A DNA stretch of 64,000 nucleotides from Marispirochaeta sp. (GTDB lineage: Bacteria; Spirochaetota; Spirochaetia; JC444; Marispirochaetaceae): positions 864,001 through 928,000 of the forward strand of contig CAXXFF010000001.1 in the NCBI GenBank assembly GCA_963676835.2, written 5' to 3'. A program made the position numbers and the translations under genes. Positions 2,938-21,378 of this stretch are shown here, in pieces. The notes below the pieces were generated by a model that worked only from the letters and a program-made list of their open reading frames with translations, was not told where the DNA came from and searched no databases. The stretch's first letter is position 1, and the number at the start of each line of letters is the position of its first letter.

Positions 2938-4007
2938 GGTCCCATTGAATTTCTGGTCAGGCTGCCGAGCTGTCCGCAAGCGGCCTGAATTGAATCGCCT
3001 CTGGTATCCCGGATTCTACAGTACTGCCCCAGTTCGAGCAGCTGTGAAGCAAACAGATCTACCTGGTCCCGGGAAGGACGCCTGTAGCGTCCGTCAGTTC
3101 CGGGATTGCAGGGAATAATATTTACACAGCTCTGCATACCCATAAGATAATCAACCAGCTGCCGGGCATCTTCGGGGGAATCATTCACCCCCGGAATAAG
3201 AGTATACTCCATGAATATCCTGTCACGCCCCCTGGCAAGGGGATACTCCTTCATTGCCTGCTTTAGCTCTTCAAGAGGCCATATGCGGTTTATGGGCATA
3301 ATGTCACAGCGCTTCTGGTTGTCAGCAGAATGAAGACTCACCGCAAGAGAGAGCCTCTTCAGGTCCGGACTCTTCCATGCTCTGATATGGGAAGCCAGTT
3401 CTCTTATTCCCGGCACATGTCCCGCGGTTGATACAGTCATGGAGGAGACAGGAATATTGCAACCTCTCTGATCGCTGATAATCTCTATTGCCTTAATGAC
3501 ATTTTCAAGGTTATCAAAGGGCTCCCCCATCCCCATAAAAACCAGGTTGGATACTGTGATTCCAAGATAGAAACGTACCGCCATAAGCTGCCCGACAATC
3601 TCACCTGCTGTAAGATTTCTGATAAGCCCGAGGCTGCCGGTTTCACAGAAAGTACACCCCCGGGCACAGCCGGCCTGGGTGGAAACACAGATGCTGGCAT
3701 AGCGGGTCATAAAGAGCACCACCGTTTCTATTAAAACACCGTCCGGAAACTGCAGCAGAATCTTGATACTGGAACTGTCCCGCTGCATATCCTTTACAAC
3801 GGGAATACGGCAGTCAAAATCCTGTCTTACCTTCAGCGCCAGTCCGGGATTTGCATGAAACTCCTTCAGATCCCCGCAAAAGCCGGTACCCCGGCTGTAG
3901 AGAGAACGGAAAAAAGGAACAGCATGGTATGTCCCCTTTCCATAGCGGCTGGAAAAAAGACCGGTAAGATCTACACAGCTGTATGAGAAGGGGTCGAAAG
4001 GAGCCAC
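2934..4007 (-). CDS. rlmN: RlmN/Cfr-family radical SAM RNA methyltransferase
   Basis: CVSTQAGCARGCTFC, FMGMGEP and C-terminal AACGQL motifs. Confidence 0.8.
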   Translation of the reverse strand: MAPFDPFSYSCVDLTGLFSSRYGKGTYHAVPFFRSLYSRGTGFCGDLKEFHANPGLALKVRQDFDCRIPVVKDMQRDSSSIKILLQFPDGVLIETVVLFMTRYASICVSTQAGCARGCTFCETGSLGLIRNLTAGEIVGQLMAVRFYLGITVSNLVFMGMGEPFDNLENVIKAIEIISDQRGCNIPVSSMTVSTAGHVPGIRELASHIRAWKSPDLKRLSLAVSLHSADNQKRCDIMPINRIWPLEELKQAMKEYPLARGRDRIFMEYTLIPGVNDSPEDARQLVDYLMGMQSCVNIIPCNPGTDGRYRRPSRDQVDLFASQLLELGQYCRIRDTRGDSIQAACGQLGSLTRNSMGP

Positions 4008-4015
4008 CCTGGGAT

Positions 4016-4435
4016 TCAGGCGTTTTTCGCTTCAGAGAGAGCTGCAGCAGCCTCCCAGCCGGAAAGAATCTCCCGGGGAATGGGAGAAGGCCTGCCGGCT
4101 GAGTTTACCATGGCAAAATCAACAGTAGCCTCGACCAGAACCGTATCACCATTGAGAATCCGCTGAAAAACCCTTCCCTTTACCTTTCCCAGGGAGATAC
4201 ATTCTGTGGCGATATTCAGGCGGTCATTCATATACGCAGGCTTAAGATAGCGGATATCGATATGGGACACATAAAGGCCGTTACCGGCCTCCAGATAGGC
4301 ATCGTAATTGAACCCACTGTCATACAGAAACTGGTGGCGGGCATACTCAAGATAATTCAGGTATACAGCATTATTCACATGTCCGTACTGATCCAGCTCA
4401 TAGGACCGTACCACTATTTCGCAGTTATAAATCAT
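4016..4435 (-). CDS. Acyl-CoA thioesterase (4HBT/YbgC hot-dog family)
   Basis: VRSYELDQYGHVNNAVYLNYLEYAR motif. Confidence 0.9.
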   Translation of the reverse strand: MIYNCEIVVRSYELDQYGHVNNAVYLNYLEYARHQFLYDSGFNYDAYLEAGNGLYVSHIDIRYLKPAYMNDRLNIATECISLGKVKGRVFQRILNGDTVLVEATVDFAMVNSAGRPSPIPREILSGWEAAAALSEAKNA

Positions 4436-4447
4436 GCAAGAATCCTA

Positions 4448-5677
4448 TCAGAGAGCATCCCTGTACTCAAGATTCCCTCCGACAGGAAACAGCTCTCCAA
4501 TGGCAGTGCGGAGTTCATCCTTCACCAATGGGGAGAAAGGCACACTCTGCTCCATTTCCTGTATTACCTGTGCGGTTTCACGGTTAAGATAGCCAACGTT
4601 CCGGCGGAAAAGTTCCTGCATCTCCCGCTGAAAATAGCGGTGATAGCTGACAACCCCATGGGGCATGAATCCCCGCTTCAGCTTATGAGGACTGCCGGCA
4701 CCGGGATCAAAATACTTTACCCCTTGTTCTATCATCCACTGTATTGGAGCGTAATAACAGAGATTAAAATGGAGATTGGGAATATCCTCATCTGCACCCC
4801 AGTAACGACCGAAAATCCACTCCCCGCCGAATAGACACATGGACATTGCTGCCGCATCTTCCGGGGCTCCTCCTTCCGGTACAGCCGCAAAGATTACCGT
4901 ATTATCCGCAAAATAATCCGGCAGCATAAGAAAGAATTCACGGTTGAGAAAACGGGCCGCCCAGGGACCAAAGCGGGAATTGGTCCTGAGATAAAAACGG
5001 TACATCCTCTCCATGACAGCCCCGGAGAGCTCTTTTCCGGTAATAATCCGTATATCCAGCCGCTGCTTTTCCAGCGACGCCCATTCCCGCCGTACATTAC
5101 GCCGCTGGTTCTTTCCCAGATCCGAGAGGTAGTCTGCAAAATCACGGTACCCCCGGTTAATCATAAGAAAGCTCTGATTCAGCCAGGGAGTATAGTCCTC
5201 CAGCGCCCTGTGCAATCCGGGGTCTGCAAACAGAAAGGATGAGCTGTATATCCCCGCCCTTTGAGCATAGGATTGAAAGTCTTCTGCTAAAAAGCTGCAG
5301 AGAGCACTCTCCGCTTCAGGACTGTCGGTAAAGAGAGAATAGAAGCCCGATGGAGTTGCCGGAACCGTTCCGATAATCTTCGGATAATAGGGAATATCGA
5401 ATCGGGCAGCCAGATCCGCCCAGGCAAAATCGTAGACAAACTCCCCGCTTGAATGAGTTTTTCCATACAGAGGCAGTACTCCGGCAAGTTCCTCTCCTCT
5501 TTTCAGGGTTAAATGCAGGGGAACCCATCCATTGTCCGCACTGATCGACCCCGATTCTTCAAGAAGCATAAGCCATTCCCAGAGATACAGAGGAGTCCTG
5601 TTGCCCGATACCAGCCTGTTCCAATCCTTCCGGTCCAGACTCTTGAGATTTTCTCCCATTGAAAGGGTAAAATTCAT
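4448..5677 (-). CDS. FemAB-like GNAT-fold protein (DUF482 type)
   Basis: PLYGKTHSSGEFVYDFAWA, GRYWG, LHFNLCYY and HKLKRGF motifs; start moved to ATG 5677. Confidence 0.85.
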   Translation of the reverse strand: MNFTLSMGENLKSLDRKDWNRLVSGNRTPLYLWEWLMLLEESGSISADNGWVPLHLTLKRGEELAGVLPLYGKTHSSGEFVYDFAWADLAARFDIPYYPKIIGTVPATPSGFYSLFTDSPEAESALCSFLAEDFQSYAQRAGIYSSSFLFADPGLHRALEDYTPWLNQSFLMINRGYRDFADYLSDLGKNQRRNVRREWASLEKQRLDIRIITGKELSGAVMERMYRFYLRTNSRFGPWAARFLNREFFLMLPDYFADNTVIFAAVPEGGAPEDAAAMSMCLFGGEWIFGRYWGADEDIPNLHFNLCYYAPIQWMIEQGVKYFDPGAGSPHKLKRGFMPHGVVSYHRYFQREMQELFRRNVGYLNRETAQVIQEMEQSVPFSPLVKDELRTAIGELFPVGGNLEYRDAL

Positions 5678-5753
5678 ATCCCTAAAATACTCATTACCAT
5701 TGCCCCTTGCTATACCGAATAAAATCTTTACCATTTAAGAATGAGGTGGGGCT

Positions 5754-6404
5754 ATGAAAAGAACTGTACTGATGTCTATTTTTCTTATGATCTGTATTAT
5801 TTCCGGGATTACAGCCCAGGAAGTGGGAGGAAGCATTTCTTTTTTTGTTCCCCTTTCCTTAATGCAGGACGGAAAAGGCAGCGTAACCTTTGAAAAGGGT
5901 CTGGAGACAAGTCTGGGGCTGGGAGGTATCTTCAGTATCCCCATAGGCTTTGTCTATAACAGGGTGGACGGTTTTCAGGTTTCGGATGACACCCTCGGAA
6001 ATCCTGATTCACCATGGTTTTACGGAGACTGTCTTATGCCCTATGTAATGCTGAAAACCCACCTTCCTCTGGGACCGCTCTATCTTGAACTCTTCGGCGG
6101 TGCCGCTGCCAACTGGAGCTTTGTCCTGAACCCCAGGGTTGATATAATGGAAAAGGATGTTCCAGGGGTAGATGACATTGATGATATTGAATATTCCCCG
6201 GTCTGGGGCTTCGGATATCTGGCAGGCGCCGCAGCAGGCGTCCAGCTGGGCAGGATTTCCGTGGACCTAGGTGCCACCTGGAGAGATATCCGTCATACCA
6301 TGGGAATATCCTTCGACGCCGATGGATCTCCTGCACAGTATTCAGACGCACAGCTTCTCCTGCGGGGAATATCCATAGCCCTTTCCGGAGGCTACAGCCT
6401 TTGA
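5754..6404 (+). CDS. Exported protein, probable small outer-membrane beta-barrel
   Basis: SD GAGGTG, signal peptide, amphipathic beta strands, C-terminal GGYSL. Confidence 0.6.
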   Translation: MKRTVLMSIFLMICIISGITAQEVGGSISFFVPLSLMQDGKGSVTFEKGLETSLGLGGIFSIPIGFVYNRVDGFQVSDDTLGNPDSPWFYGDCLMPYVMLKTHLPLGPLYLELFGGAAANWSFVLNPRVDIMEKDVPGVDDIDDIEYSPVWGFGYLAGAAAGVQLGRISVDLGATWRDIRHTMGISFDADGSPAQYSDAQLLLRGISIALSGGYSL

Positions 6405-7123
6405 CGCACCTTTGCGGTATATAAGCGTGTAAAGATAAAAATCCAAACAGTCTGAACCGCAAATCCCCCGCCCGCCCAGGCCGTCCAGGGTTCTCCCTGC
6501 ATCAGCCTGACAAAGGCAAGGGGAGCCCAGAAAGGAGGAAAGATACCTGCAGCAAACATCAGGGGACTTTTAATAAAGTAACCCGCAGCCGGCGCAGCAA
6601 ACAAAATGCCGCTTAATTTTGCCAGGGCCATGGCCTCTACCTTGTTCCCTGCAAATGTGACCAGAAAAAGTGCCAACCCCGGAGCAGACAATGCATAGAG
6701 CAGTGAGAGGCTTACAAGAGGCAGTAAGGGCGCCGACATTCCTCCCTGTAACAGCGGAAGCATTCCAGACAGGGGGAGTGAGATCACTGTGGGGATGAGC
6801 ATGCGGCAGAATAGATACCGGCCAGACGGTATTGGCAGTACAGTCGTATAGCGGAGAATCCCGCCGTCCCTGTCATCAAGCATCCTCAGTCCGGCAACCA
6901 TCCCGTTCAGAAGCGGTGGGACCATCATCATAAAACCGGTAATAAAATAATGATATGGCGCCAGATCAAAGGCAAACCGTCGCTTAAGGATTTCACCTGC
7001 AAAAGGAACGCCGGCCCTGAGAATTACACCAATAAGAAAAGGGAGAACCAGCAGAAACAACAGTTCAGGCTCCCTGAACAAATTTCTCACTTCCCCTCGA
7101 AGAAGAACTGCTTCCTGCTTCAC
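6392..7123 (-). CDS. ABC-2 type exporter permease
   Basis: Six hydrophobic segments; MLDDRDGG and AGNKVEAMA motifs. Confidence 0.8.
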   Translation of the reverse strand: MKQEAVLLRGEVRNLFREPELLFLLVLPFLIGVILRAGVPFAGEILKRRFAFDLAPYHYFITGFMMMVPPLLNGMVAGLRMLDDRDGGILRYTTVLPIPSGRYLFCRMLIPTVISLPLSGMLPLLQGGMSAPLLPLVSLSLLYALSAPGLALFLVTFAGNKVEAMALAKLSGILFAAPAAGYFIKSPLMFAAGIFPPFWAPLAFVRLMQGEPWTAWAGGGFAVQTVWIFIFTRLYTAKVRQRL

Positions 7124-7824
7124 ACTCCCTCCACAAGACGTTTTCTGAAATCCACAGAGGCCAGCCAGGAAAATATCCCCAGCCAGATGGTGGAATTGAG
7201 CACTATCACGGTTGCGGGAACACCCCCACCGGGACTTAAAGAGCCCGTCGCCCTGTCCATGAGCATCAGGCCCCCTGCACCGGGCAGGACGAGAAAAAGA
7301 GTATTACTGCCAAGGCCAAGATAGCGTATCAGCGGTAAACCCGATGGCAGGGTCAACAACCCGGCAATAATTATAAAACGTGCCAGGTTTCCGGTTCTGG
7401 TCATTACACTTGTACCGAGAAAGGTGAAGGTTGCAGCGCAGATAAAAGCCCCGGCAGCAACGGCAGGAAATGAAACCTGAAAACCTCCACCGCTAACGAC
7501 AACAAGAAGTGCAAAAAAAGTTGACACCGCAGAAAGAGTCAGGGTTCGCCTCAGGGTGAAACTGAAAGAGCTCAGAGGCAGGATCCCGACAGCTTTAATG
7601 GTCCCGCTCTGTTTTTCGAGATGCAGAGCGGCGCCGGTAAATATACAGCCCAGCATTGAAATGTCACTGTACGCCAGGGAAACCGAAACAAGTATGCGTA
7701 TAGATCCTGGTGGCAGAGTAAAAATCACAGAGCAGTAAATGAGTGAAACAAAAGCATAGGCCTGAATAAATCCATATCGGAACAGAAACAGCAGATCATA
7801 CCTGTAAGAAGAGAATGTTTTCAT
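7120..7824 (-). CDS. ABC-2 type exporter permease
   Basis: Hydrophobic protein with LEKQSGT..A..ILP motif; overlaps both neighbours by 4 nt. Confidence 0.75.
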   Translation of the reverse strand: MKTFSSYRYDLLFLFRYGFIQAYAFVSLIYCSVIFTLPPGSIRILVSVSLAYSDISMLGCIFTGAALHLEKQSGTIKAVGILPLSSFSFTLRRTLTLSAVSTFFALLVVVSGGGFQVSFPAVAAGAFICAATFTFLGTSVMTRTGNLARFIIIAGLLTLPSGLPLIRYLGLGSNTLFLVLPGAGGLMLMDRATGSLSPGGGVPATVIVLNSTIWLGIFSWLASVDFRKRLVEGV

Positions 7825-17666: not shown

Positions 17667-17719
17667 TACATTGAGAATACAGAACAGCCGTCGTGAAGAC
17701 GGGAACAGGGATATTAAAT

Positions 17720-18199
17720 GTGGCAGTTGATGTAGAAAACCTGTACAGCACCTACGGTCCTATGGTGCTGAGACGGTGCAGATCTCTTCTGAGAGATGAA
17801 GAAGCAGCGCTGGATGCAATGCAGGACACCTTTATCCAGGTACTCAGAAAAAAGAAAGAGCTCGATGCCAGAGCTCCTTCAAGTCTGCTCTATACAATCG
17901 CCACAAACATCTGTCTCAATACCATGCGGAAACACAAACGGACTCCGTTTCTCATGGATGACGAAATCCTCGCCCAGGTTGCCGGTTCAGACGATCCGGA
18001 ATCCCTGGCCCTGGCCTCCCATTTTCTCGACCGGCTGTTCCGTACCGAAAAAGAGTCGACCCGTACTATCGCGGTGCTGCACTACGTTGACAGACTGACC
18101 CTTGAAGAGACCGCGGACAAGGTAGGCCTGTCCGTGTCGGGAGTACGCAAGCGGTTGCGGTCACTGCGGAGCAGGGGACTGGCCCTTAAGGAGGTATAA
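17720..18199 (+). CDS. ECF (group 4) sigma-70 factor
   Basis: Region 2 ALDAMQDTFIQV...LYTIATNICLN and region 4 LTLEETADKVGLSVSGVRKRL; GTG start at 17720 (17693 also possible). Confidence 0.93.
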   Translation: MAVDVENLYSTYGPMVLRRCRSLLRDEEAALDAMQDTFIQVLRKKKELDARAPSSLLYTIATNICLNTMRKHKRTPFLMDDEILAQVAGSDDPESLALASHFLDRLFRTEKESTRTIAVLHYVDRLTLEETADKVGLSVSGVRKRLRSLRSRGLALKEV

Positions 18200-18203
18200 A
18201 TCC

Positions 18204-19013
18204 ATGAGCAGAATAATTCCGGATATATTAATAGAACAGGCAGCCCTGGGAGAACTTTCTCAGGAAAAAATGGACGAGCTGAGGAAAGAGTGTGACCTTG
18301 ATGCCCTGATTGCGGAAATTCAGGCTTCAAACAGGGAAATTCTGAATAAGTATCCACCGGCAGAGATAGCCGGGAGAATAAAGAGTGGCGGACAAATACA
18401 GTTAGAGAAAAAAAGGCCCCCTGCAGCAGAAGAAAAAAAGCCCCGACGCATACTTCAGGGGGTATTCCGGGTAGGCCTCCCCATGGCTGCTGCAGCCGCT
18501 CTTTTTATCGCCGTTGGACTTCCTGCCATGCGAAGCGGCGGCAGTCTCAGCGATGATGCCGGAGCCATGGGTGTGCGCCTTAAAGGGCAGGAGCCGGAAA
18601 TAAAGGTCTACCGCCAGACATCCGGCGGAGCGGAAGAGCTGCAGAACGAGGATACTGTCCACGAAAATGACCTGCTCCAGGTAAGCTACATAGCCGCAGG
18701 ATCCAAATACGGCGTTATCCTTTCCATAGACGGCAGCGGGGCAGTTACTCTCCACCATCCCGGCGGGGTGATCGGGGATCAGCAGCTGGCAAAGGGCGGC
18801 GAGTATGCCCTCCCGTTCAGCTATCAGCTTGATGATGCGCCCCGGTTTGAACGCTTCTATTTTATCAGCGGCAGCGAGGAGATCCCCATGGATCTGCTGA
18901 TGAGTGAGGCAGAGCGGGTAGCCATGAGCCGCACCGGGCTCTGGGCCGAGACCTTTCACCTGCCGGACCAGTTCCGCCAGGAATCCCTTCTTCTGCTGAA
19001 GGGCAGCCGCTGA
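18204..19013 (+). CDS. Putative anti-sigma factor: helical N-domain, TM helix, extracytoplasmic DUF4384-like beta domain
   Basis: Strong SD TAAGGAGGT overlapping the end of the ECF gene; TM VGLPMAAAAALFIAVGL; C-domain GVILSIDGSGAVTLH...YQLDDAPRFERF. Confidence 0.75.
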   Translation: MSRIIPDILIEQAALGELSQEKMDELRKECDLDALIAEIQASNREILNKYPPAEIAGRIKSGGQIQLEKKRPPAAEEKKPRRILQGVFRVGLPMAAAAALFIAVGLPAMRSGGSLSDDAGAMGVRLKGQEPEIKVYRQTSGGAEELQNEDTVHENDLLQVSYIAAGSKYGVILSIDGSGAVTLHHPGGVIGDQQLAKGGEYALPFSYQLDDAPRFERFYFISGSEEIPMDLLMSEAERVAMSRTGLWAETFHLPDQFRQESLLLLKGSR

Positions 19014-19031
19014 AAAAGGCGGGGAGATGAT

Positions 19032-21350
19032 ATGAAAAAGATACTTTGCCTTAGCGCAATAATTTTACTGTTTTCCGGCGCACACCTTTTCAGTGCCGAC
19101 CAGCCAGCCCTGCGGCGGTTCGCCCTGTTTATCGGTTCCAACAATGGAGGCAGCGAGCGGCAGCATCTGCTCTATGCGGAAAAAGATGCTGCAACCCTGG
19201 CAGGAGTTCTGACAGAAGTGGGCGGCATTGCCCCTTACGACTCGGTACTGCTCTCGGATCCGGCAAAAACAGATGTTGACGGTGCATTCGCATCTTTCAG
19301 AGAACGTATTGAAGCGGTTAAGTCCGGTGTAAAACGGATAGAGTTTATTCTTTACTATTCCGGTCATTCAGATGATGAAGGCCTGCTACTGGGGGAAGAG
19401 AAGTATCTCTACTCGGATCTGAGAAATAGTATAAACTCCGTGGATGCGGATGTACATATTGCCATTCTCGACTCCTGTTCCTCCGGAGCATTTACCCGGC
19501 TGAAAGGGGGAACCCGCAAGAGCCCCTTTCTGGTGGATGAATCGGTGGAGACATCGGGACATGCATTTCTTACATCCAGTTCTGAAGACGAAGCAGCCCA
19601 GGAGTCGGACTCCATCGGGGGCTCATTCTTTACCCACTACCTGGTCTCCGCCCTGAGAGGCGCCGCTGACTCAAGTCAGGATTCAAAGGTAACCCTCAAT
19701 GAAGCCTACAGCTATGCTTCCAACGAAACCCTGGCCAGAACCGAAAACAGTCAGGCAGGCCCCCAGCATCCGTCATACGATATAAAACTGACCGGTTCGG
19801 GAGACCTTGTTCTTACGGACCTGCGATCCACCGATGCGGTGGTGGAACTAGATGCAGCCATCGACGGCCGGCTCTTCCTGCGGGACAGTCAGGGCCGGCT
19901 GGTTGCGGAAATGCGCAAGCTTAAAGGAATTCCCATGGCACTGGCACTTCCTGCGGGCCTCTATTCTGCAACCCTCCAGACAGACAGCCGGCTGATGCAG
20001 GCGGATCTTCTGGTCAGAAGTTCCTATAAGGCTATGGTCTCACCCGCAGATTTTACTCCCCTGGACAGGGAAGGTACCCGCAGCCGGGGAAATCGCGAGT
20101 TCCCCTACTACACCCCCGGCCTGCCTTCAGACCCCCCGTCGGGAATTATCGGAGAAATACGCAGCGATCTCTACAACTCCCTGAACTGGGATCTTAACCG
20201 GGATCCGTCAGAACTTAAGCACCTCAATAACTGCTTCAGCCTGATTACCCCCCCGTCCATGGCCACCGACACGGTTATCCATAATTTCGGCCTCTATCTG
20301 GTGGGGACCAGCTACCGCCTCGAAGGCTTCGGACTGGGTATAGCAGGCATGCAGGTACAGGACATGCATGGTGCCCAGCTCAGCTCGGTCTTTTCCATAA
20401 CCGGCGGGGACTCACTCGGCTTTGCCGGTGCGGGTGTGTTCACCATAACCGGCGGCGATATGATCGGTGCAGCCAGTTCCGGCGTATTCAACATTGCCGG
20501 AGGAGATGCCTCCTTTTTCCAGGGAGCAGGGCTTTTCAACCTGGCCGAGGGAGAACTGACAGGGGTTCAGTCAGCCGGACTTTTCAACATAAGCGGTGAC
20601 GGAGTACGAGGTGTACAGGCTGCAGGGCTTTTCAATATCAACAACAACGATACATCCGGTGTACAGGCGGCGGGGCTTTTCAATGTCAGCTCCGGCCAGA
20701 CCTCGGGGGTTCAGGCTTCGGGAATGCTGAATATCGCGGAAGAGACCTCGGGAGTTCAGATTGGTGCAATCAACATTGCGGAGAATATCAGCGGGATTCA
20801 GGCAGGGGTTATCAATATTTCCGAAAATATGGACGGCCTGGCTCTTGGACTGATAAATATCTCATCCAACGGTCTGCACAATATGTCCGGCTGGACAGAT
20901 GATGCAGACTACCTCTACTTCGGGTACCAGTTAGGCGCCGGTGTAAGCTATACGGTTTTTTACGGCGGAGCACCCATGGACGGCGGGACAGAGGCGGGGC
21001 TTGTTTCCGGCCTTGGACTGGGCTTGCATCTTCCGCTGGGAACATTATATGCGGATATTGATCTTTCTGCGAAGATGGAGGTTCCCGGAGAGAGCGGAAC
21101 AGAGCAGGCAGGACAGTTTTACAACTATTCCGAAGAGAAGATTATCTGGCCGTCCCTGCGGGCATCCCTGGGCATGGAACTCTTCGGCGGTCTGGCTGTT
21201 TTCGGGGGAGTTACCCTGGAAGGATATATCCCGGAGGTCACCAACTTTTCGGAAACCTTTCACAGCGGATCAAGCAGCACGGTGCCTCTCTTTGACAGCG
21301 GCACCGACATGGAAATATTTCCGAAAATGTTTTTCGGTATCAGAGTTTAA
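19032..21350 (+). CDS. Exported caspase-family (peptidase C14) protein with GxQ repeat solenoid and probable C-terminal beta-barrel
   Basis: Signal peptide; FALFIGSN, YYSGH(112)S, ILDSC(149)SSG, GSFFTHYLVSALRGAAD; repeats at about aa 445-612. Confidence 0.88.
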   Translation: MKKILCLSAIILLFSGAHLFSADQPALRRFALFIGSNNGGSERQHLLYAEKDAATLAGVLTEVGGIAPYDSVLLSDPAKTDVDGAFASFRERIEAVKSGVKRIEFILYYSGHSDDEGLLLGEEKYLYSDLRNSINSVDADVHIAILDSCSSGAFTRLKGGTRKSPFLVDESVETSGHAFLTSSSEDEAAQESDSIGGSFFTHYLVSALRGAADSSQDSKVTLNEAYSYASNETLARTENSQAGPQHPSYDIKLTGSGDLVLTDLRSTDAVVELDAAIDGRLFLRDSQGRLVAEMRKLKGIPMALALPAGLYSATLQTDSRLMQADLLVRSSYKAMVSPADFTPLDREGTRSRGNREFPYYTPGLPSDPPSGIIGEIRSDLYNSLNWDLNRDPSELKHLNNCFSLITPPSMATDTVIHNFGLYLVGTSYRLEGFGLGIAGMQVQDMHGAQLSSVFSITGGDSLGFAGAGVFTITGGDMIGAASSGVFNIAGGDASFFQGAGLFNLAEGELTGVQSAGLFNISGDGVRGVQAAGLFNINNNDTSGVQAAGLFNVSSGQTSGVQASGMLNIAEETSGVQIGAINIAENISGIQAGVINISENMDGLALGLINISSNGLHNMSGWTDDADYLYFGYQLGAGVSYTVFYGGAPMDGGTEAGLVSGLGLGLHLPLGTLYADIDLSAKMEVPGESGTEQAGQFYNYSEEKIIWPSLRASLGMELFGGLAVFGGVTLEGYIPEVTNFSETFHSGSSSTVPLFDSGTDMEIFPKMFFGIRV
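20361..20870 (+). repeat. Intragenic 14-16 aa tandem repeats (GVQxAGLFNIxxGD / GxQxGxINIxEN)
   Basis: About 11 consecutive units visible in the translation. Confidence 0.85.
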
Positions 21351-21378
21351 GCATCAGAGTTTAAGCATCAGAGTTTAA
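21339..21378. repeat. Tandem 14-bp repeat ATCAGAGTTTAAGC, about 2.9 copies
   Basis: Copies at 21339-21352, 21353-21366 and a 12-nt partial at 21367-21378. Confidence 0.95.

Follow-up and report, generated by a model that had tools for sequence, protein, structure and literature searches.

In a 64,000-nucleotide stretch of the Marispirochaeta sp. genome (the window), the forward strand encodes an ECF sigma factor, a predicted membrane anti-sigma factor and a caspase-fold protease, in this order. The last two proteins carry three similar short motifs, and the locus raises the question of whether these are sites at which the protease cuts itself and the anti-sigma factor. An initial annotation had assumed one shared motif, R-x-[K/R]-G; the coordinates and residue numbers it gave for RLKG, RLKG and RSRG are exact (Table 1).

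Table 1. Features of the operon, with window positions and the evidence for each
Feature	Position	Strand	Evidence
ECF sigma factor, 168 aa	17693..18199	+	Matches to PF04542 and TIGR02937
Predicted single-pass anti-sigma factor, 269 aa	18204..19013	+	Family domains, AF2, fold search
Anti-sigma predicted TM helix, about aa 92-107	18477..18524	+	Sequence, AF2, family positive-inside bias
Anti-sigma tag R125-L-K127-G128 (RLKG, aa 125-128), predicted scissile bond K127/G128	18576..18587	+	Homologue conservation, AF2
Caspase-fold protease, 772 aa	19032..21350	+	PF00656, fold search, AF2
Asp52, predicted S1 acid	19185..19187	+	D 282, E 5 of 288; alignment to AtMC4/Yca1
Catalytic His112	19365..19367	+	288/288
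Asp147 (predicted S1 acid)-Ser-catalytic Cys149	19470..19478	+	Asp147 and Cys149 both 288/288
Post-catalytic loop T155-R-L-K158-G159 (RLKG, aa 156-159, 19497-19508)	19494..19508	+	Conservation, AF2
Glu191, predicted third S1 acid	19602..19604	+	288/288; analogy with MALT1 Glu500 (PMC4357240, available part)
Small all-beta domain, about aa 268-336	19833..20039	+	AF2 strands
Linker T349-R-S-R352-G353 (RSRG, aa 350-353, 20079-20090)	20076..20090	+	Conservation, AF2
LA_2272/VC2662-type surface repeats, matched aa 530-615	20619..20876	+	NF047436 over cut-off, NF047437 below
C-terminal predicted beta-barrel, aa 615-772	20874..21347	+	ESM Atlas leads only; homologue C-termini

Organization of the operon

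The sigma factor, for which homologues suggest a GTG start at 17720, is followed by a single-pass protein with an anti-sigma-type N-terminus. This is the layout of an ECF sigma factor with its membrane anti-sigma factor, and binding between the two is predicted from sequence. The arrangement recurs, with an anti-sigma factor upstream of 231 of 271 caspase homologues and a sigma factor upstream of 220. Both families are large: 3665 caspase homologues were found among 7999 scored candidates, with as many as 17 close copies in a single genome, and the anti-sigma factor has 7897 cluster representatives (E<=0.001). The anti-sigma factors retrieved with the anti-sigma profile alone carry the tag in 19 of 19 cases, and 15 of them precede a caspase. 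A site-2 protease is present in the same genome, namely an RseP homologue (G000:C3) scoring over the TIGR00054 cut-off. The sigma factor itself holds a fourth R-x-[KR]-G copy near its C-terminus (RSRG, aa 159-162, 18167-18178), in a cytoplasmic protein, which we rejected as a fourth site because the motif is not conserved among homologues. A promoter scan upstream of the operon gave no match. The flanking open reading frames in the window look housekeeping-like by eye. The domains of the anti-sigma factor agree with the ECF25 text in the available part of the Casas-Pastor supplement, a likeness that covers the anti-sigma factor and not the sigma factor; the word caspase is absent from that part of the text.

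Architecture of the anti-sigma factor and the caspase

The anti-sigma factor is predicted to consist of a helical N-terminus, a TM helix, a disordered linker and a DUF4384-like Ig fold. The positive-inside bias around the TM helix is seen across the family, and in the AF2 model the helix spans residues 92-105 and the first strand residues 132-139. Among 114 homologues, 52 have DUF4384 and 23 have zf-HC2; two homologues are named 'ActD-like protein' by NCBI. A fold search returned generic Ig-like matches only (best Z 9.3, rmsd 3.5, 125 residues aligned), a metagenome scan with the anti-sigma query gave no match, and a PDB sequence search with a single-protein query gave 0 matches.

The caspase has a signal-peptide-like N-terminus, a C14 domain, a small beta domain, a linker, LA_2272-type repeats and a predicted outer-membrane barrel; the C-terminal residue is F, L, I or W in 181 of 244 homologues. 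PF00656 assigns the catalytic domain to peptidase C14 (47.8 bits, cut-off 21.4), and it aligns with the AtMC4 structure over 207 residues with a Z of 20.1 and an rmsd of 2.8. Its closest sequence matches are metacaspases. Asp52 aligns with the Asp of metacaspase GCxND, and Asp147 is also aligned to metacaspases. Together with Glu191, the presumed equivalent of MALT1 Glu500, they are predicted to form a C14B-type acidic S1 pocket, like that of metacaspases and MALT1 in the available part of PMC4357240. No natural His/Cys knock-out was found among 232 caspases, of which 231 have both residues and the other is a split-gene fragment, or in a distant clade (120/120). The post-Cys loop is ~25 residues long and has its basic residue at Cys+9, compared with Lys225 of AtMC4 at Cys+86, and the protein lacks the long p20-p10 linker with a self-inhibitory Lys that is a trait of type II metacaspases.

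Conservation of the three tags

All three tags fall in predicted loops. The anti-sigma tag follows the TM helix by ~20 residues and closes the disordered linker, just ahead of the first strand, and structural alignments of the folded domain begin at 127-128. In the caspase, R156 is 7 residues past Cys149, K158/G159 begins a loop modelled with low confidence (aa 158-171), and R352/G353 opens a low-confidence stretch with which the modelled fragment ends.

The two RLKG copies are written with different codons. The anti-sigma factor and the caspase have 4 common 4-mers against 4.0 +/- 2.1 in 2000 shuffles, and a common 4-mer was rejected as evidence by itself, being at chance level. R-x-[KR]-G occurs 3 times with 0.38 expected, for a pattern picked post hoc. 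Among 95 near anti-sigma homologues, K127 and G128 are invariant (95/95) and R125 is present in 88, in a linker whose flanking columns 108-124 are at most 43% conserved. Among 28 near caspase homologues, the post-Cys residues T155 and K158 occur in 28 and R156 and G159 in 27; in the linker, position 352 is always basic (27 R, 1 K) and G353 is always present. The invariance of K127-G128 amid a variable linker, along with the conservation in caspase homologues, indicates that the shared motif is more than chance, and all three proposed sites are conserved over the family. The leading Arg fared differently, being found in 185 of 290 anti-sigma factors and only 11 of 28 linkers (R350). In these alignments the conserved core is [K/R]-[G/S] and not R-x-[K/R]-G, and the likely specificity is K or R at P1 and G or S at P1', with the Arg two residues before as a clade-level preference.

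A fixed rule, [KR][GS] after the TM helix, picks out 110 of 114 and 98 of 99 family anti-sigma factors against a background of 27 of 96 single-TM proteins of the same genome. In the anti-sigma factors of the distant clade, read by column (n=99), P1 is R79/K19/E1, P1' is G86/S12/A1, and the P1 column is the sole one of that alignment that is >60% basic. K-G is also kept in three anti-sigma factors that have no downstream caspase (L333, L341 and L342), whose genomes contain 13-17 or more related caspases. In the caspases, post-Cys and linker [K/R]-G are kept among the 232 and in the distant clade of 120, where the post-Cys Gly is found in all 120 and the linker has R105/K14 followed by G109/S7. 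Caspases >85% identical were dropped, as was L019, whose motif lies outside the contig. In three caspases (L062, L345 and L347), D-x-C is replaced by A-x-C and the linker tag is missing; their anti-sigma factors still have K-G.

Co-variation between anti-sigma factor and caspase

Co-variation of the motif, proposed as a check at the outset, was found for P1 in part. The anti-sigma and post-Cys P1 residues agree in K or R in 263 of 280 pairs, in a pooled test that left out L062, L345 and L347 as outgroup and kept Met and other P1 rows outside the K-versus-R counts. On the tree, 4.9 of 9 independent pairs go the same way and 0.0 the opposite way, a phylogenetically independent test that falls short of significance (median p 0.06 and 0.125). 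Shared branch changes number 2 or 5, depending on the parsimony rule, against 0.33 expected, and 11 control K/R columns give 0-1. The P1 residues tend to switch jointly, borderline on the tree. Lys at the first two sites with Arg in the linker is found in 61 of 288 systems, the window's clade included. As one genome can carry K/K/K and R/R/R systems side by side (L343 and L339 in G025; L340 and L344 in G060), base composition does not explain the choice. No S1 residue or other caspase column that tracks K versus R was found. Co-evolution of the P3 Arg was rejected: the raw signal (144/19/9/28, p 2.5e-14) disappears after tree correction, with 1.8 of 12 pairs going the same way and 1 shared branch change against 0.94 expected, and caspase position 156 ranks 58 of 293 columns.

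A proposed model of cleavage and its alternatives

Given the operon order, the intact dyad, the acidic S1 pocket, the conservation of the tags and their positions in predicted loops, the three [Lys/Arg]-Gly tags likely mark cleavage sites of the operon's own caspase. We consider it fairly probable that the caspase cuts K158/G159, R352/G353 and anti-sigma K127/G128, acting as site-1 protease ahead of RseP. Among the single cuts, that of the post-catalytic loop is well favoured, that of the anti-sigma stalk is reasonably probable, and for that of the linker the chances are even. Autoactivation, anchor release and anti-sigma shedding would be the respective functions. According to the available parts of the reports, orthocaspase MaOC1 requires autoprocessing and RseP attacks DdvA once the periplasmic domain is gone (PMC11506125). 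Here, the caspase would be exported and held by its C-terminal barrel, with the catalytic domain assumed to be in the periplasm. A signal at the repeats or the barrel, or dimerisation, would induce autoprocessing, and the freed or activated caspase domain would strip the DUF4384 domain off the anti-sigma factor. The stub left (family median 12 residues past the TM helix) would be cut by RseP to free the ECF sigma factor. A widespread trans-envelope system, in which a caspase anchored in the outer membrane would respond to a cue from outside, cut itself at two tags and its own anti-sigma factor at the third, with loop and tag co-evolving, is a more tentative proposal.

The tags may instead be pseudo-substrates or docking elements, with K158 or R352 filling S1 and keeping the zymogen shut, K127-G128 and DUF4384 binding or inhibiting the protease, and signalling by displacement or by cuts at only one or two sites. 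In the available parts of the reports, the acidic pocket of AtMC4 is blocked by the enzyme's own Lys225 until this is cut, MALT1 is active without cleavage of its post-Cys loop, and PCi is inhibitor and substrate of PCaspase (10.1101/2023.06.23.546230). Conservation and co-variation suit binding equally well as cutting, and Met, which retains the shape and loses the charge, stands at the anti-sigma P1 in 8 of 290, with partner caspases that still have the S1 acids. Scissile sites of the caspase clan have a small P1'. Those of LcCaspase are R/G in the available text. The anti-sigma P1' is limited in the same way (G/S/A 274/15/1 of 290), the tag lies about as far from the membrane as a site-1 cut would, and inhibition and cleavage can coexist. 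Docking is the main rival explanation but an unlikely one.

It is improbable that the motifs are kept for separate structural reasons, such as active-site loop geometry, a DUF4384 cap and a turn past the beta domain, or that an unrelated, trypsin-like protease of the envelope cuts at them. In favour of this reading, conservation is high over the whole caspase domain (mean column identity 56%), K127-G128 adjoins the folded domain, R-G also follows the Cys in other caspases of the genome, and the independent-pair P1 test is non-significant. These points are offset by the tag being mostly missing from other DUF4384 proteins ([KR][GS] in 5/30, K-G in 1/30; L480, unparsed, L476, with a wrong-strand ORF picked, and L497, a family member, were left out), by the shift of the post-Cys tag to Cys+13 where the loop carries a 4-residue insertion (five rows read by hand), and by the occurrence of one dipeptide in three unrelated contexts, with K/R switching in concert. 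Exchange at [K/R]-G by a transpeptidase or ligase, in which the caspase, the anti-sigma DUF4384 domain or the barrel would be covalently linked or anchored anew, is very improbable: a Gly N-terminus serves well as nucleophile, clan CD folds include ligases and asparaginyl ligase entries are among the fold matches, but nothing positive in these data points to it and the nearest sequence matches are metacaspases.

Comparison with known systems

Few bacterial caspases have known substrates, and most of these few act in the cytoplasm as death or CRISPR effectors. Cleavage by the operon's own caspase would give residue-level predicted sites for a caspase in envelope signalling, and would make the caspase-as-site-1-protease model, which is unproven for DdvA, accessible in a tractable system. 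The natural K-type and R-type pairs suit a comparison of specificity, and loop/tag co-evolution, if true, would keep the dozens of paralogues per myxobacterial genome partly insulated. A search of the non-subscription literature, to which the original act-operon work on Myxococcus does not belong, found no paper on a caspase–anti-sigma module or on the tags.

The following comparisons refer to the available parts of each report. Metacaspases, MaOC1 and MALT1 (PMC4357240, PMC5756287, PMC3304489, 10.1101/2020.03.09.983940) have the same fold, His-Cys dyad and acidic S1 pocket, whereas export and a membrane anchor are predicted here, K and R are both used and the tag is at Cys+9. MALT1 also has the caspase-plus-beta-domain layout, and the linker tag resembles its preference for Ser/Ala at P2 and Arg at P1; unlike in our proposal, its activation proceeds without cleavage. 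LcCaspase-LcHydrolase (10.1101/2025.11.14.688446) pairs a bacterial caspase with a neighbour that has conserved R/G sites (putative Arg73 and Arg117), but its role is death-effector activation as a defence against phage, and its text mentions no anti-sigma factor, DUF4384 or self-sites. PCaspase/PCi/PCc-sigma (10.1101/2023.06.23.546230) includes a cleavage-activated C14 caspase encoded beside a sigma factor and a partner substrate; it differs in activation by SAVED-CHAT, broad specificity and abortive infection, and the text of the preprint names no cleavage sites. In type III-E Csx29-Csx30-RpoE (10.1101/2022.08.17.504292), a caspase-like protease cuts a sigma-binding protein, and some Csx30 have a DUF4384 C-terminus, but the protease is an RNA-triggered, CRISPR-linked TPR-CHAT protein without a trans-envelope arrangement. 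In DdvA-DdvS of Myxococcus xanthus (PMC11506125), the anti-sigma factor is likewise a membrane protein, and a caspase-fold protease is proposed as site-1 protease for the post-TM stalk, followed by RseP. Its CHAT domain lies inside the anti-sigma factor, whereas the C14 protein here is separate and predicted to be exported and to carry a barrel; the DdvA-type TPR-CHAT fusion is replaced by a 269-aa anti-sigma factor with an Ig-like periplasmic domain and a protease in a separate gene. Autoproteolysis of DdvA was not detected, whereas here one shared tag stands at three predicted sites.

Organization of the operon and its family

The caspase-fold protein of the window operon possesses both His112 and Cys149 and follows an ECF sigma gene and a predicted anti-sigma gene. 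A genome scan found 40 related loci in Spirochaetota, Myxococcota, Latescibacterota, Acidobacteriota, and others, and BLAST detected a sigma or anti-sigma upstream in 39 of them. After enlargement with myxobacterial paralogues, an anti-sigma lies upstream of 231 of 271 distinct caspases, and a sigma of 220. Among 114 anti-sigma homologues, 52 match DUF4384 and 23 match zf-HC2; two carry the NCBI name 'ActD-like protein'. A hydrophobic stretch, taken as a crude signal-peptide proxy, precedes the caspase domain in 228 of 237 caspases, and language-model features liken the C-terminal part to unnamed outer-membrane barrel clusters. The same genome encodes an RseP homologue. Our literature search, covering the ECF classification supplement in part, found no description of this sigma/anti-sigma/caspase module.

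Features of the window operon and its surroundings
Feature	Position	Strand	Remark
ECF sigma	17693-18199	+	gene 1
RSRG	18167-18178		C-terminal end of sigma factor
Single-pass protein (predicted anti-sigma), 269 aa	18204-19013	+	gene 2
Caspase-fold protein, 772 aa	19032-21350	+	gene 3
Short repeat, 2-3 tandem copies of about 14 bases	21346-21378		where the caspase gene and a convergent mnmA-like gene end

Several family members depart from this arrangement. In five Latescibacterota loci (L023, L024, L031, L035, and L036; about 3400-7150), the sigma, anti-sigma, and caspase genes are followed first by the gene of a barrel protein (about 560 aa) that looks Omp85-like and then by that of a second caspase bearing both of its own tags. 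Both tags are also retained by caspases without an anti-sigma (L107, L115, L227; L168-L170, L252), whose preceding genes are acyl-CoA-synthetase-like or conserved lipoprotein-like. Two family caspases are split into two reading frames (G024:C11:3011-3725; G074:C55:526302-527304, L222/L226), which may reflect assembly error or pseudogenes.

A basic residue followed by Gly or Ser is conserved at three sites

The three motifs lie where the initial annotation had placed them: RLKG at aa 125-128 (18576-18587) of the anti-sigma, and RLKG (aa 156-159, 19497-19508, post-Cys) and RSRG (aa 350-353, 20079-20090, linker) in the caspase. The shared RLKG alone is unremarkable, as the two proteins have 4 four-mers in common versus 4.0 ± 2.1 in shuffles. 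The sigma-factor RSRG, a fourth R-x-R-G absent from that annotation, was rejected as a further site; homologues do not conserve it.

In near homologues, K127 and G128 of the anti-sigma are invariant (95/95 each) and R125 occurs in 88/95, whereas no column of the linker stretch 108-124 exceeds 43% conservation. The post-Cys loop retains T155 and K158 in 28/28 caspases, and R156 and G159 in 27/28; in the linker, position 352 is Arg in 27 and Lys in one, G353 is invariant (28/28), and R350 occurs in just 11. The wider set comprised 232 caspases below 85% identity and 200 placed anti-sigma motifs, with P1 (the residue before the predicted scissile bond) being Lys in 185, Met in 8, and Arg in 7, and P1' Gly in 197 and Ser in 3; the placing rule, which sought [KRM][GS] up to 4 residues away from the column in the alignment, is biased toward the motif. 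Post-Cys P1 is Lys in 219 of these 232 caspases, and linker P1 is Lys in 145 and Arg in 74. As an unbiased check, 20 loci were retrieved with the anti-sigma profile alone: 19 are anti-sigmas, all with [KR]-[GS] after the TM helix, 15 lying ahead of a distant caspase, three not, and one at a contig edge. One group of distant caspases has the post-Cys tag shifted to Cys+13. The large Arg clade of distant caspases was scored by alignment column only. Its anti-sigmas (n = 99) have R79, K19, E1 followed by G86, S12, A1, this P1 being the sole column above 60% basic; the post-Cys site has R107, K10, and three gaps followed by Gly in 120/120, and the linker R105, K14, S1 followed by G109, S7, A2, D2. 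As controls, [KR][GS] follows the single TM helix in 27/96 proteins of the same genome versus 110/114 and 98/99 family members, and precedes the domain in 5/30 unrelated DUF4384 proteins, as K-G in 1/30.

Given these counts across near, wider, and distant sets and controls, the conserved unit is [K/R]-[G/S]. Of the proposed shared R-x-[K/R]-G recognition motif, the basic-Gly/Ser core stands at all three sites and the leading Arg does not, the complete motif occurring in 168/290 anti-sigmas. The interpretation as the protease's cleavage sites in itself and in the anti-sigma is partly supported, and sharpens to [K/R]↓[G/S].

Other caspases of the same genome (L048, L052, L054, L465; contigs C2, C3) include three with R-G in the post-Cys loop, one of which has as its neighbour a DUF4384 protein carrying T-R-G C-terminally. 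Of 32 further DUF4384 genes from spirochaetes, 7 (L465, L467, L468, L470, L474, L476, L478) adjoin a caspase-profile match, pointing to a wider DUF4384-caspase link.

Predicted structure and S1 pocket

The caspase model (mean pLDDT 81.8) resembles metacaspases, caspases, and MALT1. Its pLDDT falls below 50 at aa 158-171 and at aa 351-363, the latter coinciding with the end of the modelled fragment. In position, the post-Cys tag matches the loop that is cut in animal caspases. In the anti-sigma model, a disordered linker ends with RLKG, itself in coil, ahead of strand 132-139, and structural alignment of the Ig-like domain begins at about aa 127-128; across 285 family members, P1 lies a median of 12 residues beyond the end of the TM helix. 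Asp/Glu is found at D52 in 287/288, D147 in 288/288, and E191 in 288/288 caspases. By sequence alignment, D52 and D147 match metacaspase residues described as S1 acids in PMC4357240 and the AtMC4 literature, and a basic P1 is therefore expected.

Co-variation of the tags

The leading Arg of anti-sigma and caspase shows a strong raw association (144/19/9/28), which was gone after phylogenetic correction. P1 was compared in 288 pooled systems, the main patterns (anti-sigma/post-Cys/linker) being K/K/K in 124, R/R/R in 69, and K/K/R in 61; K/K/K and R/R/R systems coexist in the same genomes. Anti-sigma and post-Cys P1 are identical in 263/280. With 14 and 10 K/R changes on the tree, 9 independent pairs changed the same way in 4.9 and oppositely in 0.0 (median p 0.0625; reverse direction 0.125), and 2 or 5 branches, depending on the parsimony rule, are shared versus an expectation of 0.33; for 11 other K/R columns the number of shared branches is 0 or 1. 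Because deep branches of the FastTree tree are weak and several tests were run, the evidence for concerted K/R switching of these two P1 residues is suggestive. The expectation of conserved, co-varying motifs held for conservation at all three sites, was suggestive for P1, and failed for the leading Arg.

Proposed cleavage and its alternatives

We consider it somewhat probable that the operon caspase would cut all three tags, acting as site-1 protease of the anti-sigma ahead of RseP. Several observations weigh against cleavage. P1 is Met in 8/290 anti-sigmas with S1 acids intact; these belong to several lineages (L132, L138, L158, L211, L212, L223, L279, L284). The window's own clade has the K/K/R pattern, with Arg in the linker and Lys elsewhere. 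Three A-x-C caspases have no linker tag and their anti-sigmas are still K-G, and K-G is retained in three caspase-less anti-sigmas. In the A-x-C clade (L062, L345, L347), Ala replaces the Asp of D-x-C, the loop reads G-K-S, and a PEGA-like domain is present. No specificity-determining column was found in the caspases of 288 systems, and no dyad-dead family caspase was among those compared to serve as a control.

The tags may instead dock as pseudo-substrates in the S1 pocket, an unlikely but serious alternative with precedents in Lys225 of AtMC4, which occupies that enzyme's own S1 pocket, and in PCi with PCaspase (bioRxiv 10.1101/2023.06.23.546230). That the tags serve separate structural roles, or are cut by another protease, appears improbable, and transpeptidation at the tags very improbable.

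Comparison with known systems

MALT1 substrates are poorly predicted from motif matches alone (PMC9463181), a caution that extends to the [K/R]-[G/S] tags. MALT1 activation needs no cleavage (PMC3304489), which counts against the cleavage reading and differs from the autoprocessing predicted for the window caspase at its own tags; MaOC1, by comparison, requires autoprocessing. DUF4384 is common to some Csx30 (bioRxiv 10.1101/2022.08.17.504292) and to members of the anti-sigma family. For DdvA, a caspase-type site-1 step resembling the role proposed here was put forward, with only the RseP step demonstrated (PMC11506125). The sites at which LcCaspase cleaves its partner are conserved R↓G bonds (bioRxiv 10.1101/2025.11.14.688446), which resemble the [K/R]-[G/S] tags of the window operon.
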